A stretch of 64,000 nucleotides of DNA from Squalus acanthias. Taxonomy: Eukaryota. Positions 6,051 to 46,637 of the stretch are shown piece after piece; the first letter of the stretch is position 1; each line of letters starts with the position of its first letter. A model generated the notes under the pieces. The model was not told the origin of the DNA, did no database searches, and was given only the letters and a program-made list of their open reading frames with translations. The stretch covers positions 64,854,001 to 64,918,000 of the forward strand of contig CM059432.1 in the NCBI GenBank assembly GCA_030390025.1. The letters run 5' to 3'. A program made the translations under genes and the position numbers.

Positions 6051-7214
6051 TCGCTCATACTGCAGTTGGATGAGTCAACCATAGATAGCCCGGGGTTTGC
6101 CTCTTCTCTTCTGCTTCCTCCCATTCCGCTTCCTCCTCTTCCACTTCCTTCTCTTCCACCTCCCCTCCTTGTCTTACTCCTCCTCCTCTCTTCCGCTTCC
6201 TCCTCCTTCTCCTCTTCCTCCTCCTCCTTAGCTGGTCGCCGTATGCCTGGTGGCAAGGGCTGTGCCCTCATGATGGCGAGGTTGTGGAGCATGCAGCAGA
6301 CCACGATGAATCTTGAGATGCGTTCTGCTAAGTATTGTGGAAGCATTGTTTAAAGATGCAAATAGTCTACTCTATCAGATTCCACATAGCCGCATGGCTC
6401 TCATTGTACGCATGCTGTCCACGTGTGGTTGGGTTGTGGAGCGGAATCATGAACCAGATGGTCAGCGAATAGCCTTTGTCGCCAAGTAGCCAGCCTCCGG
6501 TTTGTCTTGGTGGCTCAAAGACTGAGGGAACAGTGAACTGACGCAGAATTAAAGCATCATGACTGCTGCCAGGATAACAGGCATTCACCATCATGATGTA
6601 CTGAGTATGGTCGCACACCAACTGCACATTCAACAAGTGGTAACCTTTGCTGTTGCGGTACAACTCAGCATTTAGATCCGGCGCCCGCAAAGCCAGGTGC
6701 GTGCAGTCGATGGTGCCCTGCACCACGGGGAAGCCTGCTATCCTGGCAAAGCCACGGTCAGAGAGAAGACAATGAAGTCCCCTCTCCTGGCATAAAGAGC
6801 TTCTGTCACCTCTCTTATGCAGCAATGGGCAGAGAACTGGGAGATGTTACAGATGTCACCTGCTTGAGCCAGGAAGGATCCTGACGTGAAGAAATTCAGG
6901 GCCACGGTCACCTTCACAGCCTCTGGCAGCGCTGTCCTTGCCCTGGTGTGAGGCTGCAGGTCTGGTTGCGAGAGGTGGCACAGTTCTGTGAGCACCTCCT
7001 TCGTAAAGCGCAGATGCCTCATACACTGCTCCTGGCTCAGGTTCAGGTAAGAGAATTGCTCTCGGAAGACCCTAGGTGGGTAAGGCCTCCTGCTGAGATC
7101 CCTTCTCCCCCTCCTCCTCCTCCCTCTGTGAGCAGCTTGTCCTCTTCTTCGCTGCCTCTGCTCCATCTCCCTGTCATGCTGCAGGCCAAGGGGGATGACA
7201 ACTAGAGCACCCAT
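6051..7214 (-). pseudogene. Harbinger (HARBI1-like, DDE_Tnp_4-type) transposase, frameshifted and partly deleted
   Basis: Motifs ALNFFTSGSF, GTIDCTH, YPGSSHDA, LLGDKGY, NLIE, CCMLHNL spread over ORFs 6738-7226, 6367-6825 and 5960-6346. Confidence 0.92.
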
Positions 7215-9870: not shown

Positions 9871-10631
9871 AAGGTGTGGATGGTGTCCAAACAGGTCAGT
9901 CAGGAAAACATTACATCAAAGACAATGAGGTGGGGTCACAAGGGGTCAATTGTGGCAGATGCTGGGGTCTGTATGGAAAACAAAAAACTAGGTAAGGGTG
10001 CAAGGGATGTAAGGTTAAAGTGGGATGTGCAGGAGTAGGTTAACAGTGCAGAGTGCTGGTGATGAGAGGAGATGGGGAGCAGATTGAAGGTAAGTGTGAT
10101 GTTATACTCACTTTTGCTGTGCGTAGCAGGTCATTGAACCTTTTCTTGCACTGAACCCAGGTGCGACCACACAAAGACCTGGCGCTCACCTCCTCAGCAA
10201 TTTGCAGCCAGGCTGCTTTGTTTTGCTGAGGAGGCTTCCTCTGTCCATTTGAGGGGAACGGTACCGCTTGGCGCCCTCTCCCTCCCTCCACAAGAGCATG
10301 GGGGGAGTCATCATCGAATCTGGGAGATGCCTTTGGTCTTGAAGCAGTCATTTTCAGAAGTGCCACACCAAGAAGCAGCAGAATAGGATTGATCAAAAAC
10401 AAGGCTGCACGGGCTCCTTAAATGCAGCTGGCTGAAAGACGTCAGCAGAGGCGAGCAGCAGACCCGAACCCACTGATTGGGCCGGGTATCGCGCACAACC
10501 GACTTAATCAGCCCACTTAAGCAAAAATCGTAATTTCAGGGCGGATTAAACCGGCAGCGGGACCGGAACCCGCCGGACATCAAAGCCACCTCCAAACCAC
10601 CTCCACTTGGAAAATCGCGGCCTATGACTAT

Positions 10632-12135
10632 GGGCTCGATTTTAATAGCCCTGAGGAGGCTGGTTTGGAGGCGGGTCAGCTGCGAAAATCAGAAAAAATG
10701 GCTTCAGGCACCCAACTCACCTCCATCCCGCCCCCACGCGAGGACATGATCTGTAGACATTATTGGTGCAGAACTTTAAAAGCACTCCTGTAACATGGCT
10801 GGCATTCAAATGCAACAACTTTGTTGTTGGAGGTTTGGGATAAGATTTTGCAAATCTACTGACCTTGTGACTGGTCAAGCTGACACACATCTGCTGTTTG
10901 AACTGATTGGAAATAATTTCAGGCCACTTTGAGTGTGCGCTTGCAAGCTTCTTGCCTCAACTAAAATCTATAACAACAGGATGAGAACCATTTACATCCT
11001 CTCATCCTGGTCGTCAGATTCGGAGGAAGAGCAGCCCGGCTTAGTGCTGCCGGATGAACAAGTGGCTCAGCACACAGCCTCCTTGGAGGAAGATGAAGAG
11101 GACAAGGAAGAGGACGAGGAAGAGGAGGAGGATGGGGAGTGATGCCTTGCGGGGCCGGAATGACCAATCCAGCAGCAGGCAACCACATTGATGGCCATCA
11201 GGCAAGGGATGCACTCTGCCATGCCAGATTCGCGTAAGCCAACGCTTCAACCACAGGTGGCTGGCACATGAAGATGAATATAAGTCCGACAGTCTCAAAC
11301 CCCAGGCATCATCTGTCCATTAAACGGTGGTTTGCGCTCAGTGTCACCACCATCATTGTATATGGAAATCGCCCTGAGCCCTCACTCTTGAACTTCCATT
11401 TCCTAGAACACAGAGGCCACACTTTAGGTGATCTCAGCAGATCATTAAACCTTTTTCCACACTGAACCCATGTGCGTCTGCACACAGACCTCGAGCTCAC
11501 CTCCTCAGCAATTTGCAGCCAAGCTGCCTTGGTTTGCTGAGGAGGCCTCCTCCTTCCATTTCCAGGGAAGAGGAACTCCTGATGTCCTCTAACTCCCTCC
11601 ACAAGAGCATGGAGAGAGCCCTCATTGAACCTGGGTGCAGCCTTAGTTTTTGGGGCTGCCATTCCTGCAGCTCCCAGCACTTTTAAGAGAAAAAAGCATT
11701 AATATTACTAAGCAAATGATTGGAACACATCTGGCATCTTTTTCATTTCATAGTCAGATAATAAAGTCTTACAACAAAAAATCATGAATCTCTTTCTGGA
11801 ATAATATGACCAGCAATATCATTCATTAAATTTTGCTCAGAACAGACGCTGTCAACTCCCCTTTCTAGATAATAAAGCACCAAGCCATCCCAATGACATT
11901 TGTATGCAAAGGGGACATGGCCTCTTTAAATTTTCAAACAAACAACGTGTCATCAGATGCGAGAAACTGACATCCTCCAAGCAGTTGCCTGGAGGGACCC
12001 GACCCGCACGTCGGCCGTAGCGAGGCCAATGAAGCCAAAATCGGAAGTGCTGGGAGGCGGCAGCTGGGTGCGGGTCTGAAAGCTGCCGAGCAGCGGGCCC
12101 ACTCTCAACCCGCCTCCGTTAATAAAATCGAGCCC
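10632..12135 (-). mobile_element. Non-autonomous Harbinger derivative with Myb/SANT exon 1 and transposase C-terminal remnant
   Basis: Perfect TIR gggctcgatttta/taaaatcgagccc; ORF 11309-11680 APRFNEGSLHALVEGV...RTWVQCGKRFNDL; plus-strand acidic run followed by GHQARDALCHARFA*. Confidence 0.88.
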
Positions 12136-16676: not shown

Positions 16677-17187
16677 CTGATTGCACTGGTTCATGGAAGC
16701 TTTACGTTCGGTGATAAACAAGTGAGTTTGAGTGGAAACTTGAACCATAACTTCATTTTGGAGAACTAGCACAACTTCAAGCGCAATTTGTGCCCCAAAT
16801 GCCGATTGCGCTCAAAACGGAAACTCTACCCCAAAATGTTGAATATATTACTACTCGATGTCCTGTGACATTGCACACAGGTAATTGGACCAAGTGTAGT
16901 CATCAGGTGAAGCAGGGGTTAGAGGTCAGGAAATAATTGGACCCAGGGTTCACAGAAATATTCAGTCCCCATTTTAACATCAAACATTCTGTCCTTAGTT
17001 GGACCAAGACTGCAGGACGACTGCAACATTGGAGACCAGAGTGGGAAAGTAGAGCTTGCTGAGCTAGCACAGTGTTAGAGGGTTGGAGAAGGTAGAGCAC
17101 AATTAGAGGCAAGATGGGAAGGGAAAAGTAAAGCGGTGTTAAAGGCTGGTGAAGAGGGGAAATGTAGAGCTGGTAGAGGGGAAAGGC

Positions 17188-19520
17188 TGTAATGGAATAA
17201 GCCATATTCCAAGAAATACATCATCCTATGAACAGATTTTGATATTATTAATACAAGACATACTGGGGGAATAATTCAGTTGGTTGCGCCTCCCGTTAGC
17301 GCCTTAAGAGGTCGCTAATGGGGTGCAAAGCAACTAGCGCCCGGGCGACGCGATGTTTGCGCTGCTCGCGAAATTAACTAGACATTTTGTGGCGGCGCTA
17401 AACAGTACAGCCACGATCTCCTGCACTGGCAGATCGTGACGTCAGTCGAGTGCGCAATGCCCCGGTAGCGCCCCTGAGCAGATATTGAGTGGCGCCCCCT
17501 GCCTGACCGCCTGCCGCTAGCAACGACAGGTTGAGGGGAGCGTTTTGCAGTCAGGAAGGGACTGGGGGAGCGCTATTTAAAGGCGACCGCTTCCTGCCTT
17601 TTTTTGTTGGCGACATTTTTGAACCACGCATTCTGAGAGAGAGAGAGAGAGACTTCTGGAGAGATTCAACGCTGTGTGAAGGAGTTTTGGGTACTGAGCA
17701 GCACTTTGCAGGTTCATTTTGATTTGCCCTTCCTTGTATCGATTTAGAAGAGACTGTTGGGGCTGCACTCTGAGCTCTTTCCCTGGGCCTCTCCATTGTT
17801 ATTTCCAGCAGATTTGATGTACAGGTCTCTCCAGGCCGAGATTCAAGGCTGCAATGAGCAGGATGTGGATGGAAAGCAAGATTAACCCTCCCCTTTAAGA
17901 ACTGGCTGGGGCCATTGTGTCTGTGTTCCATTGCTGATTGACATCACATGAGCTTCGCCAGCGCTCTGAGTTAGCGCCTCGCTCCTCGGCCTTTGCGCCT
18001 TAAGACAGATGTGTAGCGCCTGATTTAGCGCTCCAATCACCTCCAGGGGCAATAAAAGTCAAGTTTGCAGTCGGAGGCGATAATTAGCGCCTTTGCGCCC
18101 GGCCGATAATTGCGCCCCAAACGGGGCGATACTGAATTTTTCCTCCACTGAGTTTAAAAGTCTGGCAAGCCTCAGCAACACAGGCTGCAAACACAATACA
18201 GGTTTCTGAGATAAGATGAAGTGTTAACAAAAGCTGTAAAACACCACAAGCTTTGAAATGGGAGATGGTTGTAAACACAAAAACAATGCCCCTATTGAAG
18301 CAAACCATTGGCGCTTCCAGAAGGTCTGGAGTTTGGGAGAAACACAATGGAATGACCCAAGTAAAGTGTTATAAGCTAACACTCAGGGAAACAGAAACTT
18401 AGAACATTAAACAACCATATGCCTTCATAAAGTAACATCAAATAAGACAGGAAACACGATTAAATATGCAACCAATTGAGATAGCAAGAAAACAAGTAAA
18501 CACCCTAAGAGAAGTGGTTTTAATTTACATATTGTAAAAGATACCTACAGAGAGGCTTTGAAAATATAATATCAAGAGATGACACCAAGCAATTATATTG
18601 TGTTTGTATTGTACTTGGAACACCACGGAGTCACGACGTCTGGCTTACAAGCAGTTAAATGATATTAAGAATTCAATAGAAAGACTTCCTAAGAATAGCA
18701 TCAAAAGATAAATCTGTAATAACCATTTTATGATAGTTTTTGAAACACCTAAAGGTAGAGACAGAATTCTAAAAGTTGGCAGCTGAAATGACAGTAAGAA
18801 TAGAAAAGAATTCAATAGAGTATCACTAGAGACAATTAGCTTACATCAAAAGAAAACTTCAAAGAATATACCACTAAAAAAGAGTATAAAAATAAGAGCT
18901 TTTCAGATAGAGAGTCAGAAGTCGCTGGAAAGGGGCAGAGCGATTCTCGCCTTCAGAACCACTCTGTAGGCCTACAACTCTGAGTCTCAGGTAATCAAGG
19001 TATTTGATTTTGGTGGATATTCTGAATTAAGAAATAAGTAGAAGTGTGCAAATGTAACGAAGTTAAGATTTGAGAATAAGGATCTCTGATAAGAAATGTA
19101 AGCTATTTGTATTTTGAATGGTTAAAGTTGCGATTGCCATACCAGCTGTTAACTAGATGTCGGTTCTTTAATAAATCTATATATTTTTAAATTGTCTCAA
19201 AGAGTATTTCTGTATCAATCTCGCAAACTCAATTTCTGTACACTCTTCAGTGAGGAGTTGCAGAATTCTGGGGGGTTTTCCGGACCCTCATAATATCCGG
19301 AAGGTGACAGTCTAGTTAAACTTGTTAAAAGTGCTATCCGGAGGATGGTAACATCTTCAGGCCGTTCCTTTCCTTTAGGGAGAGATAGTCTGAACCTTTA
19401 GACCTAATTAAGCGTCTCTAGGATTCGGCTACCGCTAACCTTAGTTGAAGGTGAACGTCTGGGGAATACGCCTGATCTGGGGTAGCCCGAAAAGGGCTAG
19501 GACTTGTAATTATCCCTTCA
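17188..19520 (+). mobile_element. Solo LTR (~1448 bp after removing the nested MITE); retroviral or Gypsy origin, foamy-like layout
   Basis: Ends TGTAATGGAATAA...TTATCCCTTCA, exact 4-bp TSD aggc (17184-17187 and 19521-19524), TATAAAA at 18885, cag|gtaatc at 18990, AATAAA at 19170; purine-rich flanks join seamlessly. Confidence 0.75.
17265..18146. mobile_element. Harbinger-type MITE (882 bp) inserted in the solo LTR
   Basis: TIR gggggaataattcagt/actgaatttttcctcc, TSD act/act; inverted near-identical copy at 38202-39074. Confidence 0.9.
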
Positions 19521-19708
19521 AGGCAGAGCATTGAAAGAGGGCAGAGAAGAGTTGGAGGCTTCATAGAGCTATCCAGTCAGTCCCATTTCCCTGACCTTTC
19601 CCCATAGCCCTGGAAAGTCAATCCAAATCATACAAGTTTGGACACCAAAGACAAATTAATTTGTTGGTTCATTAAATATCAACAGAAAGTACAAGCAAGT
19701 CGATACAT

Positions 19709-20176
19709 CTAGAATGTTACCAGGAATGTGGGACTTCGGTTACGTGGAGAGACTAGAGAAGCTGGGGTTCTCCTAAGAGCAGAGAAGGTTAAAGATAATT
19801 TTAGTAGTGGTGTTCAAAATCATGAAGGATTTTGATAAAGTAAATAAGGAGAAGGTGTTTCCAGTGACAGAAGGGTCAGTAACCAGAGGACGCAGATTTA
19901 AGGTAATTGGCAAAAGAACCAAAGGTGACATGGGCCAAAAAATGTTTACACAGTGAGTTGTTGTGATCTGGAATGCACTGCCTGATAGGGTGGTGGAAGC
20001 AGATTCAGTAATTACTTTCAAAAGGGAATTTGATAAGTACTTGAAAGGAAAAAGTTGCAGGGCTATGGGGAAAGGTCAGGGGAATGGAACTGACTGGATA
20101 GCTCTTTCAAAGAGACGGCACAAGCACGATGGGTCAAATAGTCCCCTTCTGTGCTGTATCATTCTATAATTCTATA
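19709..20176 (+). mobile_element. CR1 LINE 3' end
   Basis: RLEKLG...IMKDFDKVNKEKVFP...IWNALP; tail 'gtgctgtatcattctataattctata'. Confidence 0.88.
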
Positions 20177-22664: not shown

Positions 22665-24327
22665 GGCCTGGATTTTTCCAACCTCGACAGGACCGGGCAG
22701 GCAACGTCGGTGGCGTGTGGGGTCCTCGCATCTGTGTCAATCCCAGCCTCCAACAAGATATTCCGTTGATTGGACTTGTTAAGCCCGCCCTGCGAGGTTC
22801 CCGGCCAATTAATAGGAAGCGGGTCTGATGACGTCATTTGATGATGCATCATCAGCCGTTTTCCTTAAAGGGACCATGTAAAATTGATTTTGACAGTTCT
22901 GCTGCCAGTGTTCTGCAGCATTGAAGTGCTGCAAACACTGATAAGCACTGCACAAAGGTGCACGGCTGCACCCAGGTTCTCCCATGACTCCCTCCATATG
23001 TTTATGGAGGGAGTCACAGCACGCAGGGAGGTTCTCTTCGCTTCCAATGGACGGAAGACACTTCCCAGGGACACCAACGCAGCCTGGTTGCACATTGCAC
23101 AGGAGGACACAAGCAGGGATGTCATCAGGAGGACCAGGCTGCAGTGGCACAAACCTTTCAATGATCTCAGTAGATCACGAAACGTTACTGCAAAGCCACA
23201 CTCAAACTCATCCTCCTGTGCCACTCATCACTTCCCCATCACTCTACCTTCCCTGCCCTACTCCTGCACATCCTCACTCACACAACTTACTTTGCACCTC
23301 CACCCTTCCCTCTCTATCTACATTATCACTTCCCCATCTCACTAGCCACCCCTCACACTCACCCTCATCCTAGTCAATCGTAACAACTAACCACACAAGA
23401 GTAGGCACTTGGGTGTTTTAGCCAATGATCATGTAAACTTACTGTTAATGTGTTGTCAAGCATTGAAATCCTTATTGTCACCACTTTGCCTTCTTGGACA
23501 GATTTGTGTGCACCTTTGAAAGTGTATTAGTGAGTTCCAGTGAATGGTGAGACATAACATCCCCCACCACCCCCCAATGGTGATGAGTGTGAAAGGAATG
23601 GCTTGAACATTGTAGGGATGCCGGGCAGCAATGTGGTCGGGTGCTGATGCCCTGTGTCCAGTGCAGCATCAGGTGATTGCGGAGAAGGTTGGTGTGGATG
23701 TTGGTGCTGCTGGTGTGCCCGGTGATGCTGGTCTTGGGGCTGATCCTGTTGGGATTCTGAGGACCAAGGTGAGATTTTTTCAAGGGCACCGACACTGATG
23801 GAATAGATGGCAGGTGAGGTTGAGATGACAGAAGTAATCTGTCAATGTTGAGATAGGTTGTTCCAAGGAGGTGACAGTGGTTAGAGAGATTACACCAAAC
23901 ACTTCAAAAGTGCATAAAGATCAAAAGTGGGTTCCAAATCATTAATGCTCCAGCTTCTAAGTTTGGGAAGTGAGCAGCTGTGAAATGGTAGGCTTTAGAC
24001 CACTTTTTCAGCTTTCACCTATTCACCGTAATCCATAGTCATTGAGAACTCAACATACTTACCTGACACGATAGCCGCTCTCCGGGAACCACGTTGAAAA
24101 CCTGGTAAAATGTTAAGTACATGGGAAATGGTTCTTAACTACCTTTTAACAAGCTTTTAACTATCTAAATTGGCTGACCCACCGCTTGGTGTCGGGTCTG
24201 TTCAAGGCCCCGACACTTAGGAAACTCACAAGGAGACGGGTTTACAGCGGGATACCGACTCGCTTTGTGATTTTGACAACGGACCTGCCTCCAAACCTGC
24301 ATTCTGAGCACCGGCAAAATTCAGCCC
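22665..24327 (+). mobile_element. Non-autonomous Harbinger derivative with Myb/SANT exon 1 remnant
   Basis: TIR ggcctggatttt/aaaattcagccc, TSD aca/aca; APRFSHDSLHMFMEGV...AAWLHIAQE...FNDL; inverted homolog at 44947-46637. Confidence 0.88.
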
Positions 24328-29054: not shown

Positions 29055-30253
29055 CTAGGAGACAAATAAAACATTTTAAAGCAAGATATACGCATAAGCA
29101 TTGTGGTAAATGTTCCTATTTAAATCAAGACATGTAAGCCTAGAAATTGCTTCTGGACATAGAGAGATTCCTTGTTATAATTCCTAAAGAATACCTGTCA
29201 TTAAATTGCTGTAAGGCTTTTGAATTGGCAGTGTGCTGTGGCACATGGATTGTGCATTAGGAGAGTTCTCTATGAAAATTCAACAATATGAAATGGATAT
29301 TAAAGCTCAGGCAGACTTTCATCTGCCAGGAATCTGAAGGCAAATCAAGAGGTCAATCAGCAGGGTCAATCAATTTATCTAATCAGAACATTCACAGCAA
29401 TGGGGATTCCAGTGAGTGGTCCCCATCTCTTGATCTAGTGGAGCAGGATGAGCAGGAGCAGATGAGGGCTGCCAGAGATGCCAGGTACCACCAGAGGTGA
29501 ACTGTCTGTGCCTGTCTATGCCAGACTACCGCAGGAGTCATCTGCCGTGTTCGGCAGTTTGTTACAACATCAAAGACTGCTGCAATATTATAGGATAACA
29601 TAATTCTACAGAACTGCTAGATTTCCAAGAGCCCATTGGGTTATCACCTGTACCCATGTTGCTTCTTGGACCCTAACACAAAGTTATGCATCATTTTTTT
29701 TATCTCAATGTGGACATGGTGGGGTAAATGTTATGATTTAGTGCAGAGTATCACTTGACAGGAAAGCTGACAGGACAATTTGGAGCATAGATCAACAGAC
29801 CTGATTTAAAGTCCAACCAATTTTTTAGTCATTAAAATGAATAACTGGAAAATTGGGAGGATTGTGAATCAGGTACACTGAATTCCATACCTGATTTCTT
29901 GATTTGTCCTCCATCAAGCAAGGTTCCATGCTAAGTGTGTTAACTTGTAAAATTTTCCTGGTGTGCAACCACCAGCATGGAATCAAGGAGAGCAATGTTT
30001 CCTTTCTTGAAGCATTCACGATGCCTTTATTTTAAGGCAGTTATATGTACCACCCTTACATGAAGGGAATGAAGAGTGAAAGAAGGACAAGAGGAAAAAA
30101 AAGGCTACGCTATGGACCCATTGCTTATTACACCCGTGTGCTAACCACAAAATGAACCATAGCACAGATTCAACAAAGCTCATGTTACAACCAGAAATAT
30201 CAAACATACCAATGGTATCTTGAAGTAGCGTTTCATATATCTAAACCAGTCAG

Positions 30254-31973
30254 GACTATTTTGCATCTGTCTTCACTGTAGAAGACACTAACAACATCCC
30301 AATAATGGATAATCAAGGGGCCACAGGGAGTGGGGAACTAAAGACAATCACTATCACTAAGGAAATAGTACTCGGTAAAATAATGGGACTAAAAGACGAC
30401 AAGTCCCCTGGACCAGATGGCCTGCATCCCAGGGTCTTAAAAGAAGTGGCTGCAGAGATAGTGGATGCATTGGTTGCAATATACCAAAATTCCCTGGACT
30501 CTGGAGAGGTCCCAGCGGATTGGAAAACTGCTAATGTAACACCCCTATTTAAGAAAGGAGGGAGACAGAAAGCAGGAAACTATAGACCAGTTAGCCTAAC
30601 ATCTGTCGTTGGGAAAATGCTGGAGTCCTTCATTAAGGAAGCAGTAGCAGGGCATTTAGAAAAACATACTGCAGTCAAACAGAGTCAGCATGGTTTTAGG
30701 AAAGGGAAATCATGTTTAACAAATTTGCTGGAGTTCTTTGAGGATGTAACAAGCAGGGTGGACAAGGGTGAGCCAGTGGATGTGGTGTATTTGGATTTCC
30801 AGAAGGCATTCGATAAGGTGCCACATAAAAGGTTACTGCATAAGAAAAGAGCTCACGGAGTTGGGGGTAATATATTAGCATGGATAGAGAATTGGCTAAC
30901 TAACAGAAAGCAGAGAGTTGGGATAAATGGGTCATTTTCTGGTTGGCAAACGGTAACTAGTGGGGTGCCACAAGGATCGGTGCTGGGGCCCCAACTATTT
31001 ACAATCTACATTAATGACTTGGATGAAGGGATCGAGCGTAATGTAGCCAAGTTTGCGGATGATACAAAGATGGGTGGGAAAGCACTCAAAGAATCTGCAA
31101 AGAGATATAAACAGGCTAGGTGAGTGGGCAAACATTTGGCAGATGGAGTATAATGTGGGAAAGTGCGAGGTTATCCGCTTTGGCAGGAAAAATAAAAAAG
31201 CAAACTATTATTTAAATGGCGAGAGATTACAAAATGCTACAGTTTAGAGGGACCTGGGGGTCCTTGTGCATGAAACACAAAAAGTTATCATGCAGGTACA
31301 GCAAGTAATCAAAAAGGCAAATGGAATGTTGGCCTTTATTTCAAAGGGGTTGGAGTATAAAAGCAGGGAAGTCCTGCTACAACTGTACAGGGTATTGGTG
31401 AGACCACACCTTGAGTACTGCGTACAGTTTTGGTCTCCTTATTTGAGGAAGGATATATTTGCATTGGAGGCAGTTCAGAGACGATTCACTAGGTTAATTC
31501 CAGAGATGAGGGGTTTGACTTATGAGGAAAGGTTGAGCAGGCTGGGCCTATACTCACTGGAATTTAGAAGAATGAGATGTGATCGTATTGAAACATATAA
31601 GATACTGAGGGGGCTCGACAGGGTAGATGCAGAGAGGATGTTTCCCCTCATGGGGAAATCTAGAACTCGGGGGCACAGTCTCAGAATAAAGGGTCGCCCT
31701 TTTAGAACTGCGATGAGGAGGAACTTCTTCTCTCAGAGGGTTGTAAATTTGTGGAATTCTCTGCCCCAGAGAGCTGTGGAGGCTGGGTCATTAAATACAT
31801 TTAAAGTGGAGATAGACAAATTTTTGCAAGATAAGGGAGTGAAGGGTTATGGGGAGCGGGCTGGGAAGTGGCTTTGAGCCCTAGATCAGCCATGATCTTA
31901 TTGAATGGCGGAGCAGGCTCGAGGGGCCAAGTGTCCTATTCCTGCTCCTATTTCTTATGTTCTTATGTTCTTA
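30254..31973 (+). mobile_element. CR1 LINE, 5'-truncated, relatively young; RT domain with a frameshifting deletion near 31080
   Basis: ORFs 30305-31123 ([32 protein letters not shown]) and 31266-31877; (ttcttatg)n tail. Confidence 0.95.
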
Positions 31974-34937
31974 GGACAGCTTTACAGCATAAACCTCACC
32001 CTGCCCCACCTCCCAGGATTTCCAGAATATTTATTGTCTGTTCCATGCTTCAAAACATCAACCTGAAGAGGTTTCAGCATGTAGGAATAGGAAAACAGCA
32101 TTACCAATACTCACAATAGTCACAATTTTGAAATCTATTGATTTTATACTATTGGTTTTGCGTGCAAGATTTATTGGGATGAGAGCAAGAGAGAAGGATA
32201 ATTTCTCTCTGTTATATGCCAGTGAACCACATGTATTAAACAATAATGCAAAATCAATAAATAATAAAAATAAGTGCTTCCAATGCTCACAAAATTGCCT
32301 GAAAGACTGATTTTTTAATAATGTATGTTTGAAGTTGATTTTTTTGCAGGGGGTGGGGGGGTGTGGTGTGAGAGTGTTATCCATGTATTTATCAACTTTT
32401 TTGCCTCCAATAGTCACTCTATACTACACACATTCTCTATCAAATAGATCATGCGAGAGACCTGACTGCAAAGAGCTTATCTTAGCTACTGCCTATGGGC
32501 TTCCAGCAACAAGTGGCTCCATAGGTTTTCATGTCACGTATGTTCTGAATCAGGAGCCATTTAAGAATGGAAAATTGGGTAAAGAGCTGTTATGGAATAT
32601 TCCAGACTAGATGCTTTGGATAGGGATTGGACACAAGAGTGCTAAGGATGGAGCATTGAAATTTGTGAAGCCAATTGCTACGAGGAGCTCATAGCTGAGG
32701 TACAGCTCTACAGAAGCAGGTTTTTGGCCATCTCCTTAGCAATTGTTTCGAAAAGCTGTTCAATGCATGGTTGCTCCACAACCAAACTTTAGACAACTAG
32801 TTAGAGGAATACAAATGTTGATAGTTTAGTTCAGAAAGTAAACTTCATATACTGCATCCAATGGAAAAAAAACTGTTGAATGATTTGATGCTTTTGGATT
32901 TTTTTCAGTATTTTCTTTTTATATATGTACAAATGGCACATATGCTATTGCGAAAAGTAATCAAATGGAGCTGCCTTATTGTTAGCCTACGATAGCCATT
33001 CTCAAGCAAGTTACTGGTCAACCAAAATTTAGTGTATACACTTTTCTAATAAAATGTGTTTCTGTTGCATAAAATATCACCATCATTATTAATGTTTCTG
33101 ACAATTGAAAAGTGCTTTTGGTCTGTTTCTTTCCATTAATTTCAACATTCACGTTTAAACCACAAGCTGCTGTAAAAGACTTAACTGGCATATTTTTACT
33201 TAAGGATTGAAATCAATAAAAGCCATACATCTTCCATTGGAGTATAACTCAAAACTAAAAGCACATCTACTGAGATTGGTCTAATCACCATGCAGAGAAA
33301 AGACCATCAACAGCAATGCTTTTCAATCAAAGTGAATATCCTTAACATTATACAAGCAGATTTCTCCTGCACTGAAACGTCAATAAAACTCTCTGGAGAC
33401 GGAATATGCATTTCTTACAAGAACAGCCATCATAAAATAGTTATGTTATGCTGCAGCTATCGCTCATTGTGCCCAGCGACTGAGCTCTGTAACTTGGGTC
33501 AGCAAGAATAAAATGCCTTTATTATCATTGCTACATCAACAAATGATTTACCAAGGTGACAGACAGCATAAATTATAGAACCCGTTTCATTTTGTCTGGA
33601 ATATGTATGTGTTTATTATTTTTTTACAGAGGATTACATAGGAAATACGGCACAGAAACAGGCCATTCGGTCCACCCAGTCCATGCTGGCGTTTATACTC
33701 CACTCGAACCTCCTCCCGTCTTTCCTCATCTAAATCTATCAACATAACCCTCTATTCCATTCTCCCTCATATGCTTGTCTAGCCTCCCTTAAATGCATCT
33801 ATACTATTCGCTTCAACCACTCCCTGGGGTAGCGAGTTCCACATTCTCACCACTCTTTGGGTAAAGAAGTTTCTTCTGAATTCCCTATTGGATTTCTTGG
33901 TGACTATCTTATATTGATGGCCTCTAGTTATGTTCTTCCCCACAAGTGGAAACATTCTCTCTGTATCCAGTCTATCAAAACCTTTCATAATTTTAAAGAC
34001 CTCTATTAGGTCACCACTCAGCCTTCTTTTTTCAAGAGAAAAGAGCCCCAGCTTGTTCATCCTTTCCTGATATGTATACCCTCGCAATTCTGGTATCATC
34101 CTTGTAAATCTTCTCTGCACCCTCTCCAGTGCCTCTATATCCTTTTTATAATACGGCGACCTGAAGTGTACGCAGTAGTCTAAGTGTGGTCTAACCAAGG
34201 TTCAATACATGTTTACCTTAACTTCCCTACTTTTCAGTTCTATCCCTCTAGAAATAAACCCTAGTGGTTGGTTTGCTTTTTTTATGGCCTTGCTAACCTG
34301 TGGCACAACTTTTAGTGATTTGTGTACTTGTACTCCGAGATCCCTTTGTTCCTCTACCCCACCTAGATTCGCACCCTCCAAGTAATAAGTGACCTCCCTA
34401 TTCTTCCTACCAAAATGTAATACTTCACATTTATCTGTGTTGAACTTCATTTGCCAATTATTTGCCCATTCTGCAAGTTTATTAATGTCCTCCTGTAATT
34501 TATTGCAGTCCTCCTCAGCATTGACTATCCCCCCCCCCAATTTTTGTGTCATCTGCAAATTTAGAAATTGTGTTTTTGATTCCAAAGTCTAAATCGTTAA
34601 TATAAATTGTGAAAAACAGTGGTCCCAGCACTGATCCTTGTGGAACACCACTACCACCTTCTGCCACTGTGAATAGCTACGTTTTACCCCTACTCTCTGC
34701 TTTCTTTCTTGAAGCCAGCTAATTATCCATTCTGCTACTTGTCCCGTGACTCTGCATTCTCTGACCTTGCTCATCAGTCTATTATGGGGTACCTTATCAA
34801 AGGCCTTTTGAAAATCTAGATAAATTACATCTACTAAATTACCATTGTCTACTCTCTCTGTTACCTCTTCAAAAAATTCAATGAGGTTGGTCAAGCAAGA
34901 CTTTCCCTTTTGAAATCCATGCTGACTATTCATTATT

Positions 34938-35661
34938 GGGCCAAAAATTCGGCACTTCCCACGTGAGTACACAGTCCGTACTCACCCGTAAAGCGTCCCG
35001 AAGTGCCGGTTTCCTGCATGCACTGCGCATGCGCAGGAAACCGGAACTTCCGATCTGGTGAAGGGGGTGCTGCGTGCGCAGTAGAGGCTGCGCGCACGCA
35101 GCAAACTTAGATTTTTTTTCAGGTTTCTACGGGAGGGTAAGTAGTGAAGAACCTACGCTTATAAAAAGGAGGCGCAGGAGCCGTTTTCAACAAGGTAAGT
35201 GGTTAACAGGTTTATCTTTTTTAGATACTTTAAAGAAAGGTAAGTTTATTTTTATCACTTTTTAAAAGTATTTTAATTTTTTCAAAAATTTAAATTTTTG
35301 TTTAAAGTGGTTAATTTATTTAACTATAGTTATTTTATAAATGTGATGGTTTAAAAAAAAAAATATTTTAAGTTTAGTTTTTCTTTTGGGGCCGATTTCA
35401 ATTCACAGATTTGACAGGTCTCCTGTCAAATCTATGAATGAAAGATGGTCTGCTGCCATTGGCTCTCCATGGCCCATGTGATCCCAGGGGACGCATCACA
35501 CTAACTGCGCCCCTGGGACACGTACGCACTGCGCACCGGCAGTTGGAGCAGGCCCAGGAGCTGAAGTTCCCGTGGGCCCAAAACACAATGGCAGGCGCGG
35601 TAGGTAAGTGCGCGCGCGATCCTTATCCCCGCAGCAAGCCGGAGAGGCGAATTTCTGGGCC
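34938..35661. mobile_element. Harbinger-type MITE with AT-rich core
   Basis: TIR gggccaaaaattc/gaatttctgggcc, TSD att/att; interrupts CR1 ORF2. Confidence 0.88.
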
Positions 35662-38201
35662 ATTATGTTTTTGGTTTCTAGATGTTCTTCTATTTTCTCC
35701 TTTAGTAGGGATTCCATTACTTTTCCTATCACCGATGTTAAGCTGACTGATCTATAATTCCCTGGACATGTTCTATTCCCCTTCTATCCGCCAGTCCTCT
35801 GGCAATACACCTTTTTCTAACGAATTATTAAATATGTGCAATAAAGCCTCTGCTATCTCTTCCCTAGATTCTTTTGAAATGCGTGGATGCAATCCATCCG
35901 GACCAGAGGTTTTATCCTCTTTGAGTTTGATTAGTTTATTTAATATATCCCCTCTTTTTATTTTAAATGCACTTTCTCATTACTAATCTCATCATCCAAT
36001 GTCATGTCTACCTGTTCTATCTCCCTGAATACCGAAGCAAAATAAATATTTTATATTTCTGCCATCTCCCTATCGTTACCTGTGGTATTATCCTGACTAT
36101 CCCCTAATGACCCTATTCCCATCTCAACCTTCCTTTTTTTTATTGATGTGTCTGTAAAATATTTTACTATTTTGTTTTATGTTCCTTGACAATTTAATTT
36201 CATAGCTCCTCTTTGCCTTCCTAATTGTTTTTATGACTTATCTCCTAATCTCTTTGTATTTTTCCTTATCATGCACTTCCCCTGCTGACTATGTACTTAA
36301 TGTATGCCTCTTTTGTTACCCTCAATTGTTCCCTTATGGCTTTATTCATCCATGGAGTCTCATTAGTGTTTAGTTTCTTTCCTTTTAGTGGAATATATTG
36401 TTCCTGCACTCTGTTGAACACTGTTTTAAATGTTTCCCATTGCTGTTCTACATCGTTGTTTGCCAATATTGTTGCCCATTTTATTTATCCAAGTTCTATT
36501 CTCAGCCCCTCAAAATCAGCTTTTTTCCAATCTATTAACCTGTTTTTTGTCATACTTATGTCCTTCTCAATTATCATCTTAAAGTGTAATATATTATGGT
36601 CCCTATTGCCTAGATGTTCCCCTACTTTTGCTTCTCTTATCTGCTCTGGTTCATTCCCCATTACTAGATCCAATAGCGAATTCCCCCTTGTTGGGCTTTT
36701 TACATATTGGGTTACAATGGAGTCTTGTACACATTGTAGGAACTCCATTCCCTTATCCCCTTTATCTACCTCTTCTGTCCAATTAATATTGGGGTAGTTG
36801 AAATCCTCCATGATTATTATTCTATTGTTTTTTACTCATTTCCCTAATTTGTCTGCATATTTCCTCCACCTCCCTTTCACTGTTAGGTGGGCTGTAGACT
36901 ATACCTATTAGTGTGATTGATTCTTTAATATCTTTTATCTCTATACATATGGATTATATTTTTGCCTTGCTGATAGCTGCGTCACTTTTTTCTACTGCCA
37001 TTATGTTATCCCTAATAAGTACAGCTACTCCACCACCCCTTTTTCCCTCTCTATTTTTTCTAAATATGTTATTCCCTGCAATGTTTAATTCCCAGTCCTG
37101 ATTTTTCTGTAGCCATGTTTCAGTAATCCCTACTATGTTTGGTTCCTCGCAACGCATGATTGCCTCCAGCTCCCCTGTTTTATTACGGACACTGTGTGCA
37201 TTGCTGTACAGACAGTTTAACTAATTTTTAATAGGATTTCCTCTCACTTTATATTTAACCATCTTTTTAGACTCCTGTTCTATAACTCTATTTATTCATT
37301 TGCAATCAATGTCCTCCCTTATTTTATTCTTTCCTACACTCTCTTTTCCTGTTTTGTTTATAATTAGGCTGGTTACATTTCTTGTAGACCCCTCCCCCCA
37401 TTTTACTAGCTTAAACCCTTTGCCACCTCCCTATTTACCCTTTCCACTAGGATACGGGTCCCATCCCAGTTCAGGTGGAGCCTGTCCCATCAGTACAGTT
37501 CCTTCCTGTCCCAGCACTGGTGCCAGTGCCACATGAAAAGGAACCCCTCTTTCCCACACCAGCCCTTTAGCCACGTGTTAATTCTCTTGATCTGTCTGCT
37601 TCTATGCCAATTTGCACGTGGCTCGGGCAATAATCCAGAGATTATTATCCTCGAGGTCCTGCTTTTTAATTTAGAGCCTAACTCCTGATATCTTTCAGCA
37701 GGACCTCCTCCCCATTCTTATCTGTGTCGTTTGTTCCAATATGGACCATGACAACTGGACTTACCCCCTCCCTTTCCAAGTTGCTCTCCAGCCGCCATGA
37801 GATATCCCTTACCCTGGCATCGGGTAGCCAACACACCCTTCGGGATTCTCGTTCTTAGCTGCAGAGGACACTATCTATCCCCCTAATTATAGAGTCCCCT
37901 ATCACTACCACATTTCTATTCTGCTCTTCCCCGCCTTGGACAGCCTTCTGAGCCACGGTGCTTTGGTCTGCATTGTGGCTGTCCTCCCTGCAGTCTTTCT
38001 CCTTGTCCTCACAAGTAGCGAGTACTTCGTACCTGTTGGACAGGACTAGTGTCTGTGGGACCTCCTTCTCAACCTCTCCTAAATCCCCGCTACCCGGCTC
38101 CCTACAGTCATACCCTCCCCTTCCTGAACCTGCGCTTTCCTCTGGGGTGTGACTGCATTCTGAATAAAACTATCCAGAAATTCCTCCCCCTCCCTTAAAT
38201 G

Positions 38202-39074
38202 GCCCCATTTGGGACGCAATTATCGGCCGGGCGCAAAGATTAGCGCCTGCGCTAATTATCGCCACCGACTGCAAACTTGACTTTTATCGCCCCTGGAGGT
38301 GAATGGAGCGCTAAATCAGGCGCTTCACACCTGTCTTAAGGCGCAAAGGCCGAGGAGCGAGGTGCTACCTCAGAGCGCTGGCGAAGCTCATGTAATGTCA
38401 GTCAGCAATGGAACACACACACAATGGCACGGGCCAGTTCTTAAAGGGGATGGTTAATCTTGCTTTCCATCCACATCCTGCTCATTGCAGCCTTGAATCT
38501 CGGCCTGGAGAGGCCTGCACATCAAATCTGCTGGAAAGAACAATGGAGAGTACCAGGCAAAGAGCTCAGAGTGCAGCCCCCACAGTCTCTTCTAAATCGA
38601 TACAAGGAATGGCAAATCAAAATGAACCTGCAAAGTGCTGCTCAGTACCCAAAACTCTTTCACAAAACGTTGAATCTCTCCAGAAGTCTCTCTCTCTCTC
38701 TCTCAGAATGCGTAGTTCAAAAATGGCACCAACAATAAAAGGCAGGAAGCGGTCACCTTTAAATAGCGCTCCCCCCTTCCCTTCATGACTGCAGAACGCT
38801 CCACTCAACCTGTCGTTGCTAGCGTCAGGCGGTAAGGCAGGGGGTGCCACTCAATATCCGCTCCGGGGCGATACCGGGGCGTTGCGCACTCGACTGACGT
38901 CACGATCTGCCGGCGCAGGAGATCGTGGCGGTAGTGTTTAGCGCCGCCGCAAAATGTCTAGTTAATTTTGCGAGCGGCGCAAACTTCGCCACGCCTGGGC
39001 GCTAGATTCTTTGTGCCCCATTAGCGCCCTCTTAAGGCGCTAACGGGAGGCGCAACCAACTGAATTTTTCCCCC
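38202..39074. mobile_element. Harbinger-type MITE, inverted copy of 17265-18146, one TIR lost
   Basis: Reverse-complement similarity along its length; right TIR actgaatttttccccc; interrupts CR1 ORF1. Confidence 0.88.
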
Positions 39075-39523
39075 ATAGTGTCTCCAACTCGCACTCCAGC
39101 TCAATGACTCTGAGCCAGAGAGATTCGAGATGGAGACATCTGCTATAGACGTGTTTGCTCGGGACAGACTCACTGTCCACAAATTCCCACATACTGCAGT
39201 CCAGACACACAACCGCCCTGCCATATCTTATTCTAGCTTTATTTTATTTATTTAATAAGTTAAAGTCTTTATTCAATAATTATTTAAAGTTATATTAATT
39301 AGTTTACCTAGTTAAGCAATGAATTTAATAAAGTACTTTGTAGTTTTCCGCACCTTGTTTAAACCACTGTCATAGGTTAGAGAGAAAAGAGAAAAAAAAA
39401 CCCTTAATACTCACCAACCAATCACCTACCTGCTGTCCTGTGATGTCACTCCTTGTGTTTTTGGAAATTGTCAAAGGTTCGGCCGCCGCTGATACTGCCT
39501 CCAATTATCCCTCCATATTATTT

Positions 39524-41580
39524 TTTTCATTCGTTCATGGGATCTGGGCATGGCTGGCAAGGCCAGCATTTATTGCCCATCTCTAATTGCTCTTGAGAAG
39601 GTGGTGGTGAGCTGCCTTCTGGAACCGCTGCTGTCCGTGTGGTGAAGGTACTCCCACAGTGCTGTTAGGGAGGGAGTTCCAGGATTTTGACCCAGCGACG
39701 ATGAAGGAACGGTGATATACTTCCAAGTCAGGATGGTGTGTGACTTGGAGGGGAACTTGGAGGTGGTGGTGTTCCCATGTGCCTGCTGCCCTTGTCCTTC
39801 TAGGTGAAAGAAGTCGCAGGTTTGGGAGGTGCTGCCGAAGAAGCCTTGGCAAATTGCTGCAGTGCATCTTGTAGATGGTACACACTGCAGCCATTGTATG
39901 CCGGTGGCTGAGAGAGTGAATGTTTTTTAAGGTGGTGGAAGGGGTGCCAATCAAGCGGGCTGCTTTATCCTGGACGGTGTCAAGCTTCTTGAGTGTTGTT
40001 GGGGCAGCACTCATCCAGGCAAGTCGAGAGTATTCCATCACACTCCTGACTTGTGCCTTGTAGATTGTGGAAAGGGAGTGAGACACTCGCCGCAGAATAC
40101 CCAGCCTCTGACCTGCTCTTGTTGCCACAGTATTTATGTGGTTGGTCCAGTTAATTTTCTGGTCAAAGGTGACCCCCAGGATATTGATGGTGGGGGATTC
40201 GGCAATGGTAATGCTGTTAAATGTCAAGGGGCGGTGGTTAGAATCTTGCTTGTTAGAGATAGTCAATGCCTGGCACTTGTGTGGTGGGAATGTTACCTGC
40301 CACTTATCAGCCCAAGCCTGAACGTCGTCCAGGTCTTGCTGCATGCGGGCATGGACTGCTTCATTATCTGAGGAGTTGTGAATGGCACTGAACACTGTGC
40401 AGTCATCAGCGAACATCCCCTTTTCTGACCTTATGTTGGAGGAAAGATCATTGATGAAGCAGCTGAAGATGGTTGGGCCGAGGACACTGCCCTGAGGACC
40501 TCCTGCAGTGATGTCCTGGGGCTGTGATGATTGACCTCCAACCACCACAACCATCTTCCTTTGTGCTAGGTATGACTCCAGCCAGTGAAGAGTTTTCCCC
40601 CGATTCCCATTGACTTCAGTTTGACTAGGGCTCCTTGATGCCACACTCGGTCAAATGCTGCCTTGATGTCAAAGGCAGTCACTCTCACCTCACTTCTGGA
40701 ATTCAGCTCCTTTGTCCATGTTTGGACCAAGGCTGTAATGAGGTCTGGAGCTGAGTGGTCTTGGTGAACCCAAACTAGGCATCAGTGAGCAGGTTATTGG
40801 TAAGTGCTGCTTGGTAGCACTGTCGATGACACCTTCCATCACTTTGCTGATGATTGAGAGTAGACTGATGGGGTAATTGGCCAGATTGGATTTGTCCTGC
40901 TTTTTGTGGACTGGATATACCTGGACAGTTTTCCACATTGTCGGATAGACGCCAGTGTTGTAGCTGTACTGGAACAGCTTGGTTAGAAGCGCGGCTAGTT
41001 TTGGAGCACAAGTCTTCAGCATGACAGCCGGGATGTTATCGGGACCCACAGCCTTTGCTGTATCCAGTGTGCTCAGCCGTTTCTTGATATCACGTGGAGT
41101 GAATAGAATTGGCTGAAGACTGGCTTCAGTGATGGTGGGGACCTCAGGAGGAGGCTGATATGGAACATCCACTCGGCACTTCTGTCTGAAGGTGGTTGCA
41201 AACGCTTTGGTCTGGTCTTTTGCACTCACGTGCTGGTCTCCACCATCATTGAGGATGGGGATATTCATGGAGCCTCCTCCTCCCGTTAGTTGTTTAATGG
41301 TCCACCACCACTCACGACTGGATGTGGCAGGACTGCAAAGCTTTGGTCTGATCCGTTAATTGTGGGATCACTTAGCCCTGTCTATAGCATGCTGCTTCTG
41401 CTTTTTAGCATGCATGTAGTCCTGTGTTGCAGCTTTCCCAGGTTAGCACCTCATTTTTAGGTACGCCTGGTGTTGCTCCTGGCATGCTCTTCTACACTGC
41501 TTATTGAACCAGGGTTGGTTCCCTGGCTTGATGGTAACGGTGGAGTGAGGGATATGCCGGGCCATGAGGTTACAGATTAT
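39524..41580 (-). mobile_element. CR1-clade LINE (second family), 5'-truncated
   Basis: ORFs 39583-40644 and 40690-41268 with RT motifs ([18 protein letters not shown]). Confidence 0.92.
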
Positions 41581-43958
41581 GCTGAGGTTTTCAGTCAGTT
41601 TATTACATATTAAACACCAAGGCAACCATAGTAACCAAAGTCTATTGCAAATAAAAACCCTTTTAAAAATTAAAACCCAATTTAATCGCTGGTGCTTGTG
41701 AAAATCACTCAGCTGAATCCAGTACCTCTTATTAAAAATTATACCTGCAACCTAATGGAAGGGTAGTATTCATCGGCTCACACTGCCAAATAGGACTAGA
41801 GCACTTAGAGAACGAATAACAACTGGCATTTATATAACATCTTTAACATAGAAAAATGTGACAACGCACAGAGGTGTAATGGAGTCCAAGCCATTTAAAG
41901 GGGGCAGTTAAAATAAGGACTGTCTCTTAGCCCCTCTGATCCTGCTGCCTTCCCACCATGTCCCAATCTTAACCTGCTCTTTTGAGCAAACGAGTGGGAG
42001 GCCCGGTGGAAGGAAGCGGGGTCCTTCTTTAAATATGCAGTTCAGGACTGATGATGTCATCAGGACACAATCTGCAATTTTAGTTGGAGACCTGAGCAGC
42101 GAGTGACAGCTTCCCTGTCAGGCCTAACCAGTCTGGAGCTGGGTCATGGGTCAGAAGAGGCCCCGCAGGTAAATTTGACAAATTTAATTTTAAGTTTCCT
42201 TGTGTGCCAAGAGGAGCAGGAGTGCTGCTCTGGGCCTCACAAGGAAGCCTCCCTGCCCCCTCCCCCCCACCGATCGCGGCCAGAGCCTCAACTGAATTAT
42301 CAGCAATGAACAATAAAGGTGTTCTGCAAGGCAATGTATTAATATTTTGCTACATGTTTGCACACTTACCTTGGCAACCTCATGCAGCCCTGCAAATCTC
42401 TTCCTCACCTGCTCCCATTTATGTACTATCACCTAGAACCATGCTGCTCTTCCACTGCTCTTTAACATAGGGCGACTCTCTCTTCTAAATAAAGCCTTCG
42501 TCACCACAGAAGCACTATCGCCATATTTAGCCATTTTCATATTACCTGCAGCAGAACAGCTTTAAGTGCGGCCGCAGTCCCTTTGAGAGCTGTTGGTGCT
42601 GAAAATCCCATCTGACCTACAGACGTGCCCAGCTTGTCTTGCACCAAGTATTGGGAGTGCCGAAAAAATTCAAACAAACTGAACTCACTTCTTGCCCCAC
42701 ACATGCACGCAGTATTGAATTAACAGAACTGTGACCTCATTATCGGTCCCATAAAGTGTATGAAATGCCTTCATCTACTATTTTAACAAAAGTGCTAACC
42801 AATTCATTTTATTTTAATGGCTTATCGCTTTTCATGCAATAATGTACAGAAGAATGTCAAAGAAATGTGAGTATTGTACAGGCAATTGCCACCCATAAGT
42901 TGTGTGCAGCAAAAAATAGCTCTATACCTTGCTACCTAAGGCTAGCTCAAACTGGATTCTAAGACATAAAAAAAACTGAAGGAGACATTATGGGCCAAAA
43001 AAATACATGTTCCCTTGCCGAATGGTCCCATTACTGCAGGTGCAGCTTGAGAACATGGATGAATTGCAAACAGCAGCAAAAAAAAACCCAAAAGATACAA
43101 AATGCAAATAGATTTATTTATTGAAATTAAAAAAGGAAAACAGATGCAATCAGTAATTTTAATCAGCAATTTCCAGGACCATTTATTTTTAGCTCAGGTT
43201 TGATACTTTAATAATGAGTCTGTGACCTCCCAGGAAGTGAGTACTTTGATGTAGAACGGCACTAGAGTCCCTCCTGAGAACAGCAGATGCAAGCTGCTAG
43301 TACAGATTCATGAAAGACTCCATTAGATTGCAAGAAATGTTTTTTGGGGTTCTGAAATCATAGAATCATAGAATTATACAGCACAGAAGGCAGCCATTCG
43401 ACCCATCTAGCATGTGCCAGCTCTTTGGTAGAGCTATCCAATTAGTCCCACTTCCCTGCTCTTTCCCCATAACCCTGTATTTTTTTTTCCTTCAAGTATT
43501 TATCCAATTCCCTTTTGAATGTTACTATTGAATCTGCTTCCACCACCTTTCAGGCAGTGCATTCCAGATCACAACAACTCACTGTGTAAAAATTTTTTTC
43601 CTCATGTCGCCTCTGGTTCTTTAACCAATCACCTTAAATCTGTGTCTTCTGGTTACTGACCCTTCTGCCACTGGAAACAGTTTCTCTTTATTTACTCTAT
43701 CAAAACTATTCATGATTTTGAACAACTCTATCAAATATCCTCTTAACCTTCTCTGCTCTAAGAAAAACAACCCCAGCTTCTCCAGTCTCTCCACATAACT
43801 GAAGTCCCTCATCCCTGGTATCATTCTAGTACATCTCTTCTGCACCCTCTCTAAGGCCTTGACATCCTTCCTAAAGTGTGGTGCCCAGAATTGAACATAA
43901 TACTCCAACTGAGGCCTGTCCAGTATATTAAAAGTGTTTAGCATAACTTCCTTGCTTT

Positions 43959-44946: not shown

Positions 44947-46637
44947 GGGGGGAATTTTTCGGGGTGTCAGCGGGTGCGTTTAGTGGTGGGTTGGGTGGGA
45001 AAAAAAATTTTGACAGCAGGTCGGCAATTTAGGTCATTATAACCTTGTTAAGAGCCACTTAAAAAGTATTTTGAGTTCACCTTTAAATTTTACAAGGTCG
45101 CCCACGGGGTCCATGTTGCTTGGGGATTACATCAGGTAAGCAGGTCGGGAGTTGTGTTACCATGAAATCTCTTTGCTTGACAGCTGCAAATGTGTTATAA
45201 AAGCTCCCATCTCATAGCTGTTCACTTTCCAAGCTCAGAAGCTGTTGCTTACTGCATTTGGAAGACAGATTGAGCTTTATGCAGGTTGTAAGTGTTTGGA
45301 GTAAATCCCTATCCAGTGTCACCTCATTGGAACAACCTCTCTCCCCATTGACAGATCGCTTCTGTCATCTCAACTTCACCTGCCATCTATTAGAGCAGCA
45401 TCAGTGCCCCTGAAACTATCTCACCTTGGTCCTCAGAATCCCACCACGATCAGCCCCAACACCAGCAGCACCAGGCACACCAGCAGCACCAACAACAACA
45501 CCAACCTTCTCCGCAATCAACTGATGCTGCACAGGACTCAGGGCATCAGCACCCGACCACATTGCTGCCCGGGACTCCAGGGATGGCCTCACCATGGCCA
45601 GATTTACTTCACTTGACGCTGTACAGCGCTGGCTGCCATATGATGCGCCAGGTTGGCACCACCCCACAACAACACCATAAAGCATCCCTACAATGCCCAA
45701 GCCATTCCTTTCACACTCATCACCATTGCGGGGGGTGCCGTTATGTCTCACTGTTCACTGCAACTCACTAAGCCACTTACAAAGGTGCACACAGATCTGT
45801 CCAAGAATGCAAAGTGTTGAAAATAAAGATTTCCATGTTTGACAGCACATTAACAGAAACTTCACATGAACATTGGCTAAAACACACAAGTGCCTACCCT
45901 TGTATGTTGTTAGTTGGTATGATTGGACTAGGATGAGGGTGAGTGTGAGGGATGTTTAGTGAGATGGGGAAGTGATAATGTAGATAGAGAGGGATGGGTG
46001 GAGGTGCAAGGTAAGTTGGTGTGAGTAAGGATGTGCAGGAGTAGGGTAGGGAAGGCAGAGTGTGATAGGGATGTGATGAGTGGCACAGCAGGATGAGGTT
46101 GAGTGTGGCTTGCAGTAACGTTTCGTGATCTACTGAGATCATTGAATTGTTTGTGCCACTGCAGCCTAGTCCTCCTGACGACATCCCTGCTTGTGTCCTC
46201 CTGTGCAATGTGCAACTAGGCTGTGTTGATCTCCAGGGGAGGTCTCTTCCGCCCATTGGAAGGAAAGAGAACCTCCCTGTGTGCTGTGACTCCCTCCATA
46301 AGCATATGGAGGGAGTCATGGGAGAGCCCGGGTGCAGCCGTGCACCTCTGTGCAGTGCTTGTCAGTGTTTGCAGCACCTCAATGCTGTACAACACTGACA
46401 GCACAACTGTCAAATAAATTTGCGCATGGTCCCTTTAAGAAACTGGTTGATGACGTGTCATCAAGTGACGTCATCAGACCCACTTCCTTCAATTGGCCGG
46501 GAAACGCACTGGGTGGGCTTAACAAGCCCAATCAACGTAAAATCACTTTGGACAGCGGGCTGGAGCCAGCAGCGAGGTCAGGACCTGCCACCGACCCCGG
46601 CCGCACCGGACCCGCCGAGGTAGGGGAAATGGCGGCC
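44947..46637 (-). mobile_element. Non-autonomous Harbinger derivative with Myb/SANT exon remnant (same family as 22665-24327)
   Basis: Ends ggggggaatttt/gaaatggcggcc, TSD taa/aaa; the CR1 host is continuous across it. Confidence 0.85.

Follow-up and report, generated by a model that had tools for sequence, protein, structure and literature searches.

A many-copy solo LTR of possibly foamy-like parentage in the genome of Squalus acanthias

Results and discussion

The element at positions 17188 to 19520 of the analyzed window (the whole stretch of 64,000 nucleotides of Squalus acanthias contig CM059432.1) is a solo long terminal repeat (LTR) of a many-copy retroelement family, a reading that we hold with a probability of about 0.95. 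Solo LTRs are what endogenous retroviruses most commonly leave behind, and the element is an ordinary kind of genomic repeat. Judged by its architecture, its parent may have been a foamy-like (spuma-related) endogenous retrovirus (ERV), an assignment to which we give slightly better than even odds.

Termini and target-site duplication

TG at 17188-89 and CA at 19519-20 form the termini of a 2,333-nt element on the plus strand, bordered by exact AGGC repeats at 17184-87 and 19521-24. Both the TG...CA ends and the exact 4-bp target-site duplication (TSD) are found where a preliminary description of this DNA had placed them, and so are the internal signals TATAAAA at 18885, AATAAA at 19170, and the hairpin at 19483-99, together with an A-rich U3. 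The "imperfect inverted repeats" of that description were overstated: matches occur at 7 of 23 terminal positions, 3 of these within the first 4, which leaves little beyond TG/CA. Without the 885 nt that comprise a miniature transposon (MITE) and a single copy of the ACT that it duplicated, the LTR proper measures 1,448 nt. The features are as follows.

17184 to 17187, plus strand: left target-site duplication, AGGC
17188 to 19520, plus strand: solo LTR, TG...CA, delimited by its ends, a step in read depth, and two single-copy contigs in run X1, one with its end at 17213 and one with its start at 19496
17188 to 17264, plus strand: 5' piece of U3, with a frame that begins at the first base and stays open for 25 codons, and a read depth like that of the rest of U3
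17265 to 18146, no strand assigned: non-autonomous DNA transposon (MITE), 882 bp, putatively of PIF/Harbinger (PHIS) type from its 3-bp TSD
18147 to 18884, plus strand: main part of U3, 42% A, with one stop-poor frame
18885 to 18891, plus strand: TATA box TATAAAA, one of two TATAWAW matches, the other lying at 19178, past the poly(A) signal
18988 to 18996, plus strand: donor-like site in the predicted R, at chance level
19170 to 19175, plus strand: poly(A) signal AATAAA, the only AATAAA outside the MITE
19200 to 19520, plus strand: predicted U5 of about 320 nt, structured, with a hairpin at 19483-19499
19521 to 19524, plus strand: right target-site duplication, AGGC, with no PBS after it

Of 200,000 draws of two random points, 0.35% yielded a TG..CA pair with an identical 4-mer, each no more than 5 nt from the points. 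An alternative 5-bp duplication (AAGGC) around an element running TG..TC was dropped, because the 4-bp reading yields the canonical CA end. Purine content is 75-78% in both flanks, as expected if they were formerly one contiguous stretch. No PBS follows the terminal CA, and no retroviral or Gypsy motif was found within 7000-30000, where YxDD-like matches lie only outside the element. Self-BLAST and a motif scan of the locus yielded neither a PPT-linked internal part nor a second LTR, and Rfam and ARAGORN returned no matches in the 64-kb window.

In the history that we propose, an element with two LTRs would have been inserted by an integrase, with duplication of 4 bp of target DNA, the AGGC duplication itself being observed. 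LTR-LTR recombination, a known mechanism of solo-LTR formation (PMC4977317), would then have excised the internal genes, so that a single LTR stayed behind between the duplications; this step is proposed because the TSD is intact and no PBS or retroviral motif adjoins the LTR. A MITE, putatively of PIF/Harbinger type, entered U3 at 77 nt, where its 3-bp duplication is visible, either before or after the recombination.

Evidence for a multi-copy family

Read data provide independent backing for the solo-LTR reading, both in its boundaries and in its multi-copy depth. Reads were analyzed in four runs with 31-letter words, giving a summed depth that is not equivalent to copy number. In run X1, this summed depth was 17.6 in the flank bin compared to 18,000-452,000 inside the element, a step of more than 1,000-fold. 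Two single-copy contigs of the locus stop just inside the element, one ending at 17213 and the other starting at 19496 (26 and 25 nt inside the ends, respectively), and their inner portions are too short to count as bridging. With words of 31 letters, these stops would place the borders of the repeat within 4-5 nt of 17188 and 19520. Taken together, the depth step and the contig stops show that the element belongs to a multi-copy family with these boundaries.

Depth in run X1 is near 25,000 across U3 (about 25,100), a value that the first 32 nt approach (implying about 23,900), and reaches about 220,000 in the 3' part. In all four runs, the interval 18750-19520 has a depth several-fold above that of U3. 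The higher 3' depth may reflect related subfamilies with a common R-U5 and distinct U3 regions.

Of the 22 sequencing runs listed, 20 contain all or some of the stretch 18150-19520. In organisms A to E, covered by 7 studies, 0.25-0.60 of its words are present; the best-matching study may be the window's own sample, which leaves 6 studies without it, and the small word shares in X19 and in X20 (organism F) were left out of the count. With the family common to at least five organisms, orthologous filled and empty sites could be used to date its invasion. No run containing the stretch is on record as an RNA run, and X11 and X12 are merely conjectured to be RNA. Exact patterns of 23-24 nt from the LTR had no matches in viral contigs, metagenome contigs, or GTDB genomes, collections in which the host is not expected. 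Among the 15 of 23 joints listed, none joined the flanks as an empty site with a single AGGC, the flank bin being without cover in three of the four runs, and no loose end fell at either LTR terminus among the 24 of 1,066 listed. The MITE dominates the variants listed (40 of 337 differences and 12 of 65 indels), none of which lies at an LTR terminus.

A MITE interrupts U3

The 882-bp insert at 17265-18146 carries 15-nt terminal inverted repeats (TIRs) and is flanked by an ACT duplication at 17262-64 and 18147-49. A contig joint leading from 17261 directly to 18147, and thus skipping exactly 885 nt, was found in runs X13 and X11 (one contig each, in two of the four runs examined). Therefore, LTR copies without the MITE exist, and these joints bear out the earlier proposal that a MITE interrupts U3. 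A further X13 contig skips 999 nt over 17239-18239, which suggests a MITE-free LTR variant with an additional U3 deletion of about 114 nt.

PIF/Harbinger (PHIS) transposons make 3-bp TSDs (PMC4482050), and the duplication length assigns the insert putatively to this type. Short TIRs, a 3-bp TSD, high copy number, and a lack of coding capacity, all traits of PHIS MITEs, are present in the insert. Like the non-autonomous PHIS transposons described in PMC4482050, it combines a 3-bp TSD with short TIRs starting with G; unlike them, its TSD is ACT rather than TWA (PMC4482050). A second copy of the MITE lies on the minus strand at 38199-39083; it is 91.5% identical, carries an extra 10-nt stretch, and lacks the right terminal repeat. 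Elsewhere in the window, Harbinger remnants (pieces of DDE_Tnp_4 and a Myb/SANT domain) are found at 6367-6846, 61878-62390, and 10040-10417 (the last on the minus strand), and similar, putatively Myb-like frames lie at 11309-11698, 22869-23345, and 45894-46361.

Signals within the LTR

In the parent, transcription is predicted to have started at about 18912-18920, 25-30 nt past the TATA box (18885), and the RNA to have been cleaved about 22 nt past AATAAA (19170), at the CA at 19198-99, which would give an R of about 285 nt. The LTR would accordingly divide into U3, R, and U5 of approximately 840, 285, and 320 nt. The 3' part is structured: the hairpin TAGCCC-GAAAA-GGGCTA occupies 19483-99, and the interval 19230-19520 folds with z = -3.34 (none of 200 shuffles equaled this). 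R folds no better than its shuffles (z = +0.52). A possible internal duplication of U3 near 18667 and 18806 was not significant (P = 0.062).

The preliminary description had also pointed to a splice donor at 18990, upstream of AATAAA. The sequence is indeed there, as CAG/GTAATC with the boundary before GT (18991-92) and matches at 7 of 9 consensus positions, but it does not rise above chance: when R was shuffled 5,000 times, 27% of the shuffles contained a donor that matched as well, as did 101 of 500 background stretches (P≈0.2-0.27). In most copies the site is weaker still, as 96-100% of the depth at position 18989 in the four runs reads another letter, which lowers the match to 6 of 9 positions, a level reached by 78% of shuffles.

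A frame open from the first base of the LTR for 48 codons had likewise been described after removal of the MITE. Such a frame is present: its two pieces, each translated by itself, run without a stop for 25 and 23 codons and keep the same phase. At this base composition, however, an open run of 48 codons in one of three frames is expected with a frequency of about 7%, as calculated from the stop rate. Across the whole of U3, one plus-strand frame, in phase with the frame opening at the first base, holds 8 stops in 245 codons compared to 18.4 ± 3.8 in 5,000 shuffles, with P = 0.009 as the best of three frames and P = 0.22 as the best of six. Within the window, 28 of 111 A-rich control stretches are equally stop-poor, most of them over LINE-like coding remnants. 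The frame shows no 3-base codon periodicity (P = 0.24, against 0 of 3,000 for a LINE reverse transcriptase control). Read through with X at its stops, it had no homolog among 184, 11, and 794 candidates or among 1.84 billion representatives, and all three plus frames of U3 matched 0 Pfam families at E values up to 1. None of the 9 U3 differences listed (among the 40 of 337 differences listed) falls in a stop codon; the stops may therefore be family-wide, and the frame may already have been lost when the family began to spread. We tentatively consider that the stop-poor frame could be a decayed accessory gene. Accessory genes of fish foamy-like ERVs are also without homologs in the account of PMC5210030, and acc2 of AciFLERV terminates before its LTR (PMC5512871).

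Parentage of the LTR

The foamy-like assignment is drawn from architecture; the features that define the group, namely, the placement of reverse transcriptase, the GGG/TG junction at the PPT, the PBS, env, and the accessory genes, sit in the missing internal part. Foamy-like ERVs are marked by GGG/TG at the border of the PPT and the 3' LTR and by a tRNA-Lys/Asn/Thr PBS, and all but one of the complete fish foamy-like ERVs have 4-nt TSDs (PMC5210030). LTRs of foamy-like ERVs measure 1,498 nt in AciFLERV, 1,634 nt in AliFLERV, and 960-974 nt in NviFLERV-1 (PMC5512871), compared to a range of about 200-1,100 nt for the LTR elements found in 10 tetraodontiform genomes (PMC11117352). The element shares with foamy viruses the 4-nt TSD and a long LTR (1,448 nt, within the foamy range of about 1-1.6 kb), neither of them exclusive to the group; 4-nt TSDs are common to gammaretroviruses too, and long LTRs are not exclusively foamy either (PMC5210030). 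Like the element, the foamy-like ERVs of fish, amphibians, and sharks (AciFLERV, AliFLERV, NviFLERV, and CmiFLERV; PMC5512871, PMC5210030) pair a 4-bp TSD with TG..CA ends and little further inverted repeat. The resemblance in length to the published LTRs of 1,498, 1,634, and 960-974 nt is one of architecture (PMC5512871).

Mammalian foamy LTRs (PFV, PMC3694450; PSFVgal, PMC4261875) are alike in having a long U3 and, in this order, a TATA box, a donor-like site, and a poly(A) signal, the last within R. In PFV, both donor and poly(A) signal lie inside an R of 193 nt (PMC3694450). In PSFVgal, U3, R, and U5 measure 954, 150, and 163 nt, and bel2 runs about 560 nt into the 3' LTR (PMC4261875); the reading frame of the element resembles bel2 in entering U3 from the 5' end (PMC4261875). 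With about 285 nt predicted for R and about 320 nt for U5, the element exceeds R of PFV (193 nt; PMC3694450) and R and U5 of PSFVgal (150 and 163 nt; PMC4261875). Unlike the mammalian foamy LTRs, the element has a donor at chance level and a U3 frame with 8 stops. Closer in host, ERV-Spuma.0-Sca of the small-spotted catshark (PMC10699275) also comes from a shark and has an LTR opening with TGT..TGGAA; its LTR is 866 nt long, and its first 400 nt are by eye unlike the element beyond that motif (PMC10699275). Two 8-mers from the element were not found in the Sca context of the supplements of PMC10699275, as far as these were represented. The foamy-like origin advanced in the preliminary description keeps the support of LTR length, 4-bp TSD, a long predicted R, and a stop-poor frame, against which stand the chance-level donor, the minimal inverted repeats, and, for the frame itself, its eight stops and its lack of codon periodicity and of homologs.

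Best placed among the alternatives, though in our judgment unlikely, is that the solo LTR comes from a different group of fish retroviruses, whether SnRV-like (clade Huo), epsilon-like (clade Mu), or lokiretroviral. All three groups occur in the elephant shark (PMC4422223, PMC6001957, PMC4977317), 4-nt TSDs occur outside the foamy viruses as well (PMC5210030), and the foamy-type donor in R does not exceed chance. Two LTRs of epsilon-like fish ERVs are, in contrast, much shorter than the element, at 475 nt in CoeERV1-1 (PMC4977317) and approximately 565 nt in ERV-Epsilon.0-Ebu (PMC10699275).

Next comes a long-LTR Gypsy retrotransposon (e.g., Barthez-like) without an envelope or a viral past, which we likewise regard as an improbable parent. 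Some vertebrate Gypsy families make 4-bp TSDs, which counts for this origin, and the high copy number fits intracellular spread. A part of the Barthez Gypsy LTRs are longer than 1,000 bp, but most such LTRs measure 400-700 bp (PMC11117352). The stop-poor U3 frame and an R of about 285 nt, a weak and a predicted feature, respectively, would fit complex retroviruses better than Gypsy.

A more specific version of the foamy-like reading appears doubtful to us. The parent would be an undescribed shark foamy-like lineage, its LTR would carry a fossil accessory gene, about 300 codons long and without known homologs, that spans all of U3 and runs through the TATA box, and its R would hold a donor ahead of the poly(A) signal. 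If this were true, U1-controlled choice of poly(A) site would date back to the viruses of cartilaginous fish.

Least probable by far is that the element is some other dispersed repeat with a chance TG..CA between matching 4-mers: such a repeat would agree with the minimal terminal inverted repeat, and neither a PBS nor a copy with two LTRs nor, in the 15 of 23 joints listed, an empty site was found, but read-based borders lie no more than 4-5 nt from either predicted end, an end pattern of this kind arises by chance in 0.35% of draws, and TATA box, AATAAA, and structured 3' part stand in the order of an LTR.

A solo LTR of foamy-like parentage is of little significance by itself, since foamy-like ERVs of cartilaginous fish are already published (PMC5512871, PMC10699275). 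No description of this LTR family was found in the mostly open-access literature searched. If the parent was foamy-like, the family would be a useful marker, and its LTRs could serve to test the donor-before-poly(A) layout and the overlap of accessory genes with U3 in sharks.

Neighboring repeats

The stretch adjoining the LTR at 19560-20110 consists of inverted arms of 56 nt with 91% complementarity, and the 439 nt between them match LINE-like sequence at 43415-43829. A LINE tail has probably undergone inverted duplication here. Decayed LINE reverse transcriptase regions lie further along the window at 30245-31877, 33779-34981, 39583-41355, and 56347-59571, and RVT_1 was confirmed in two of them.
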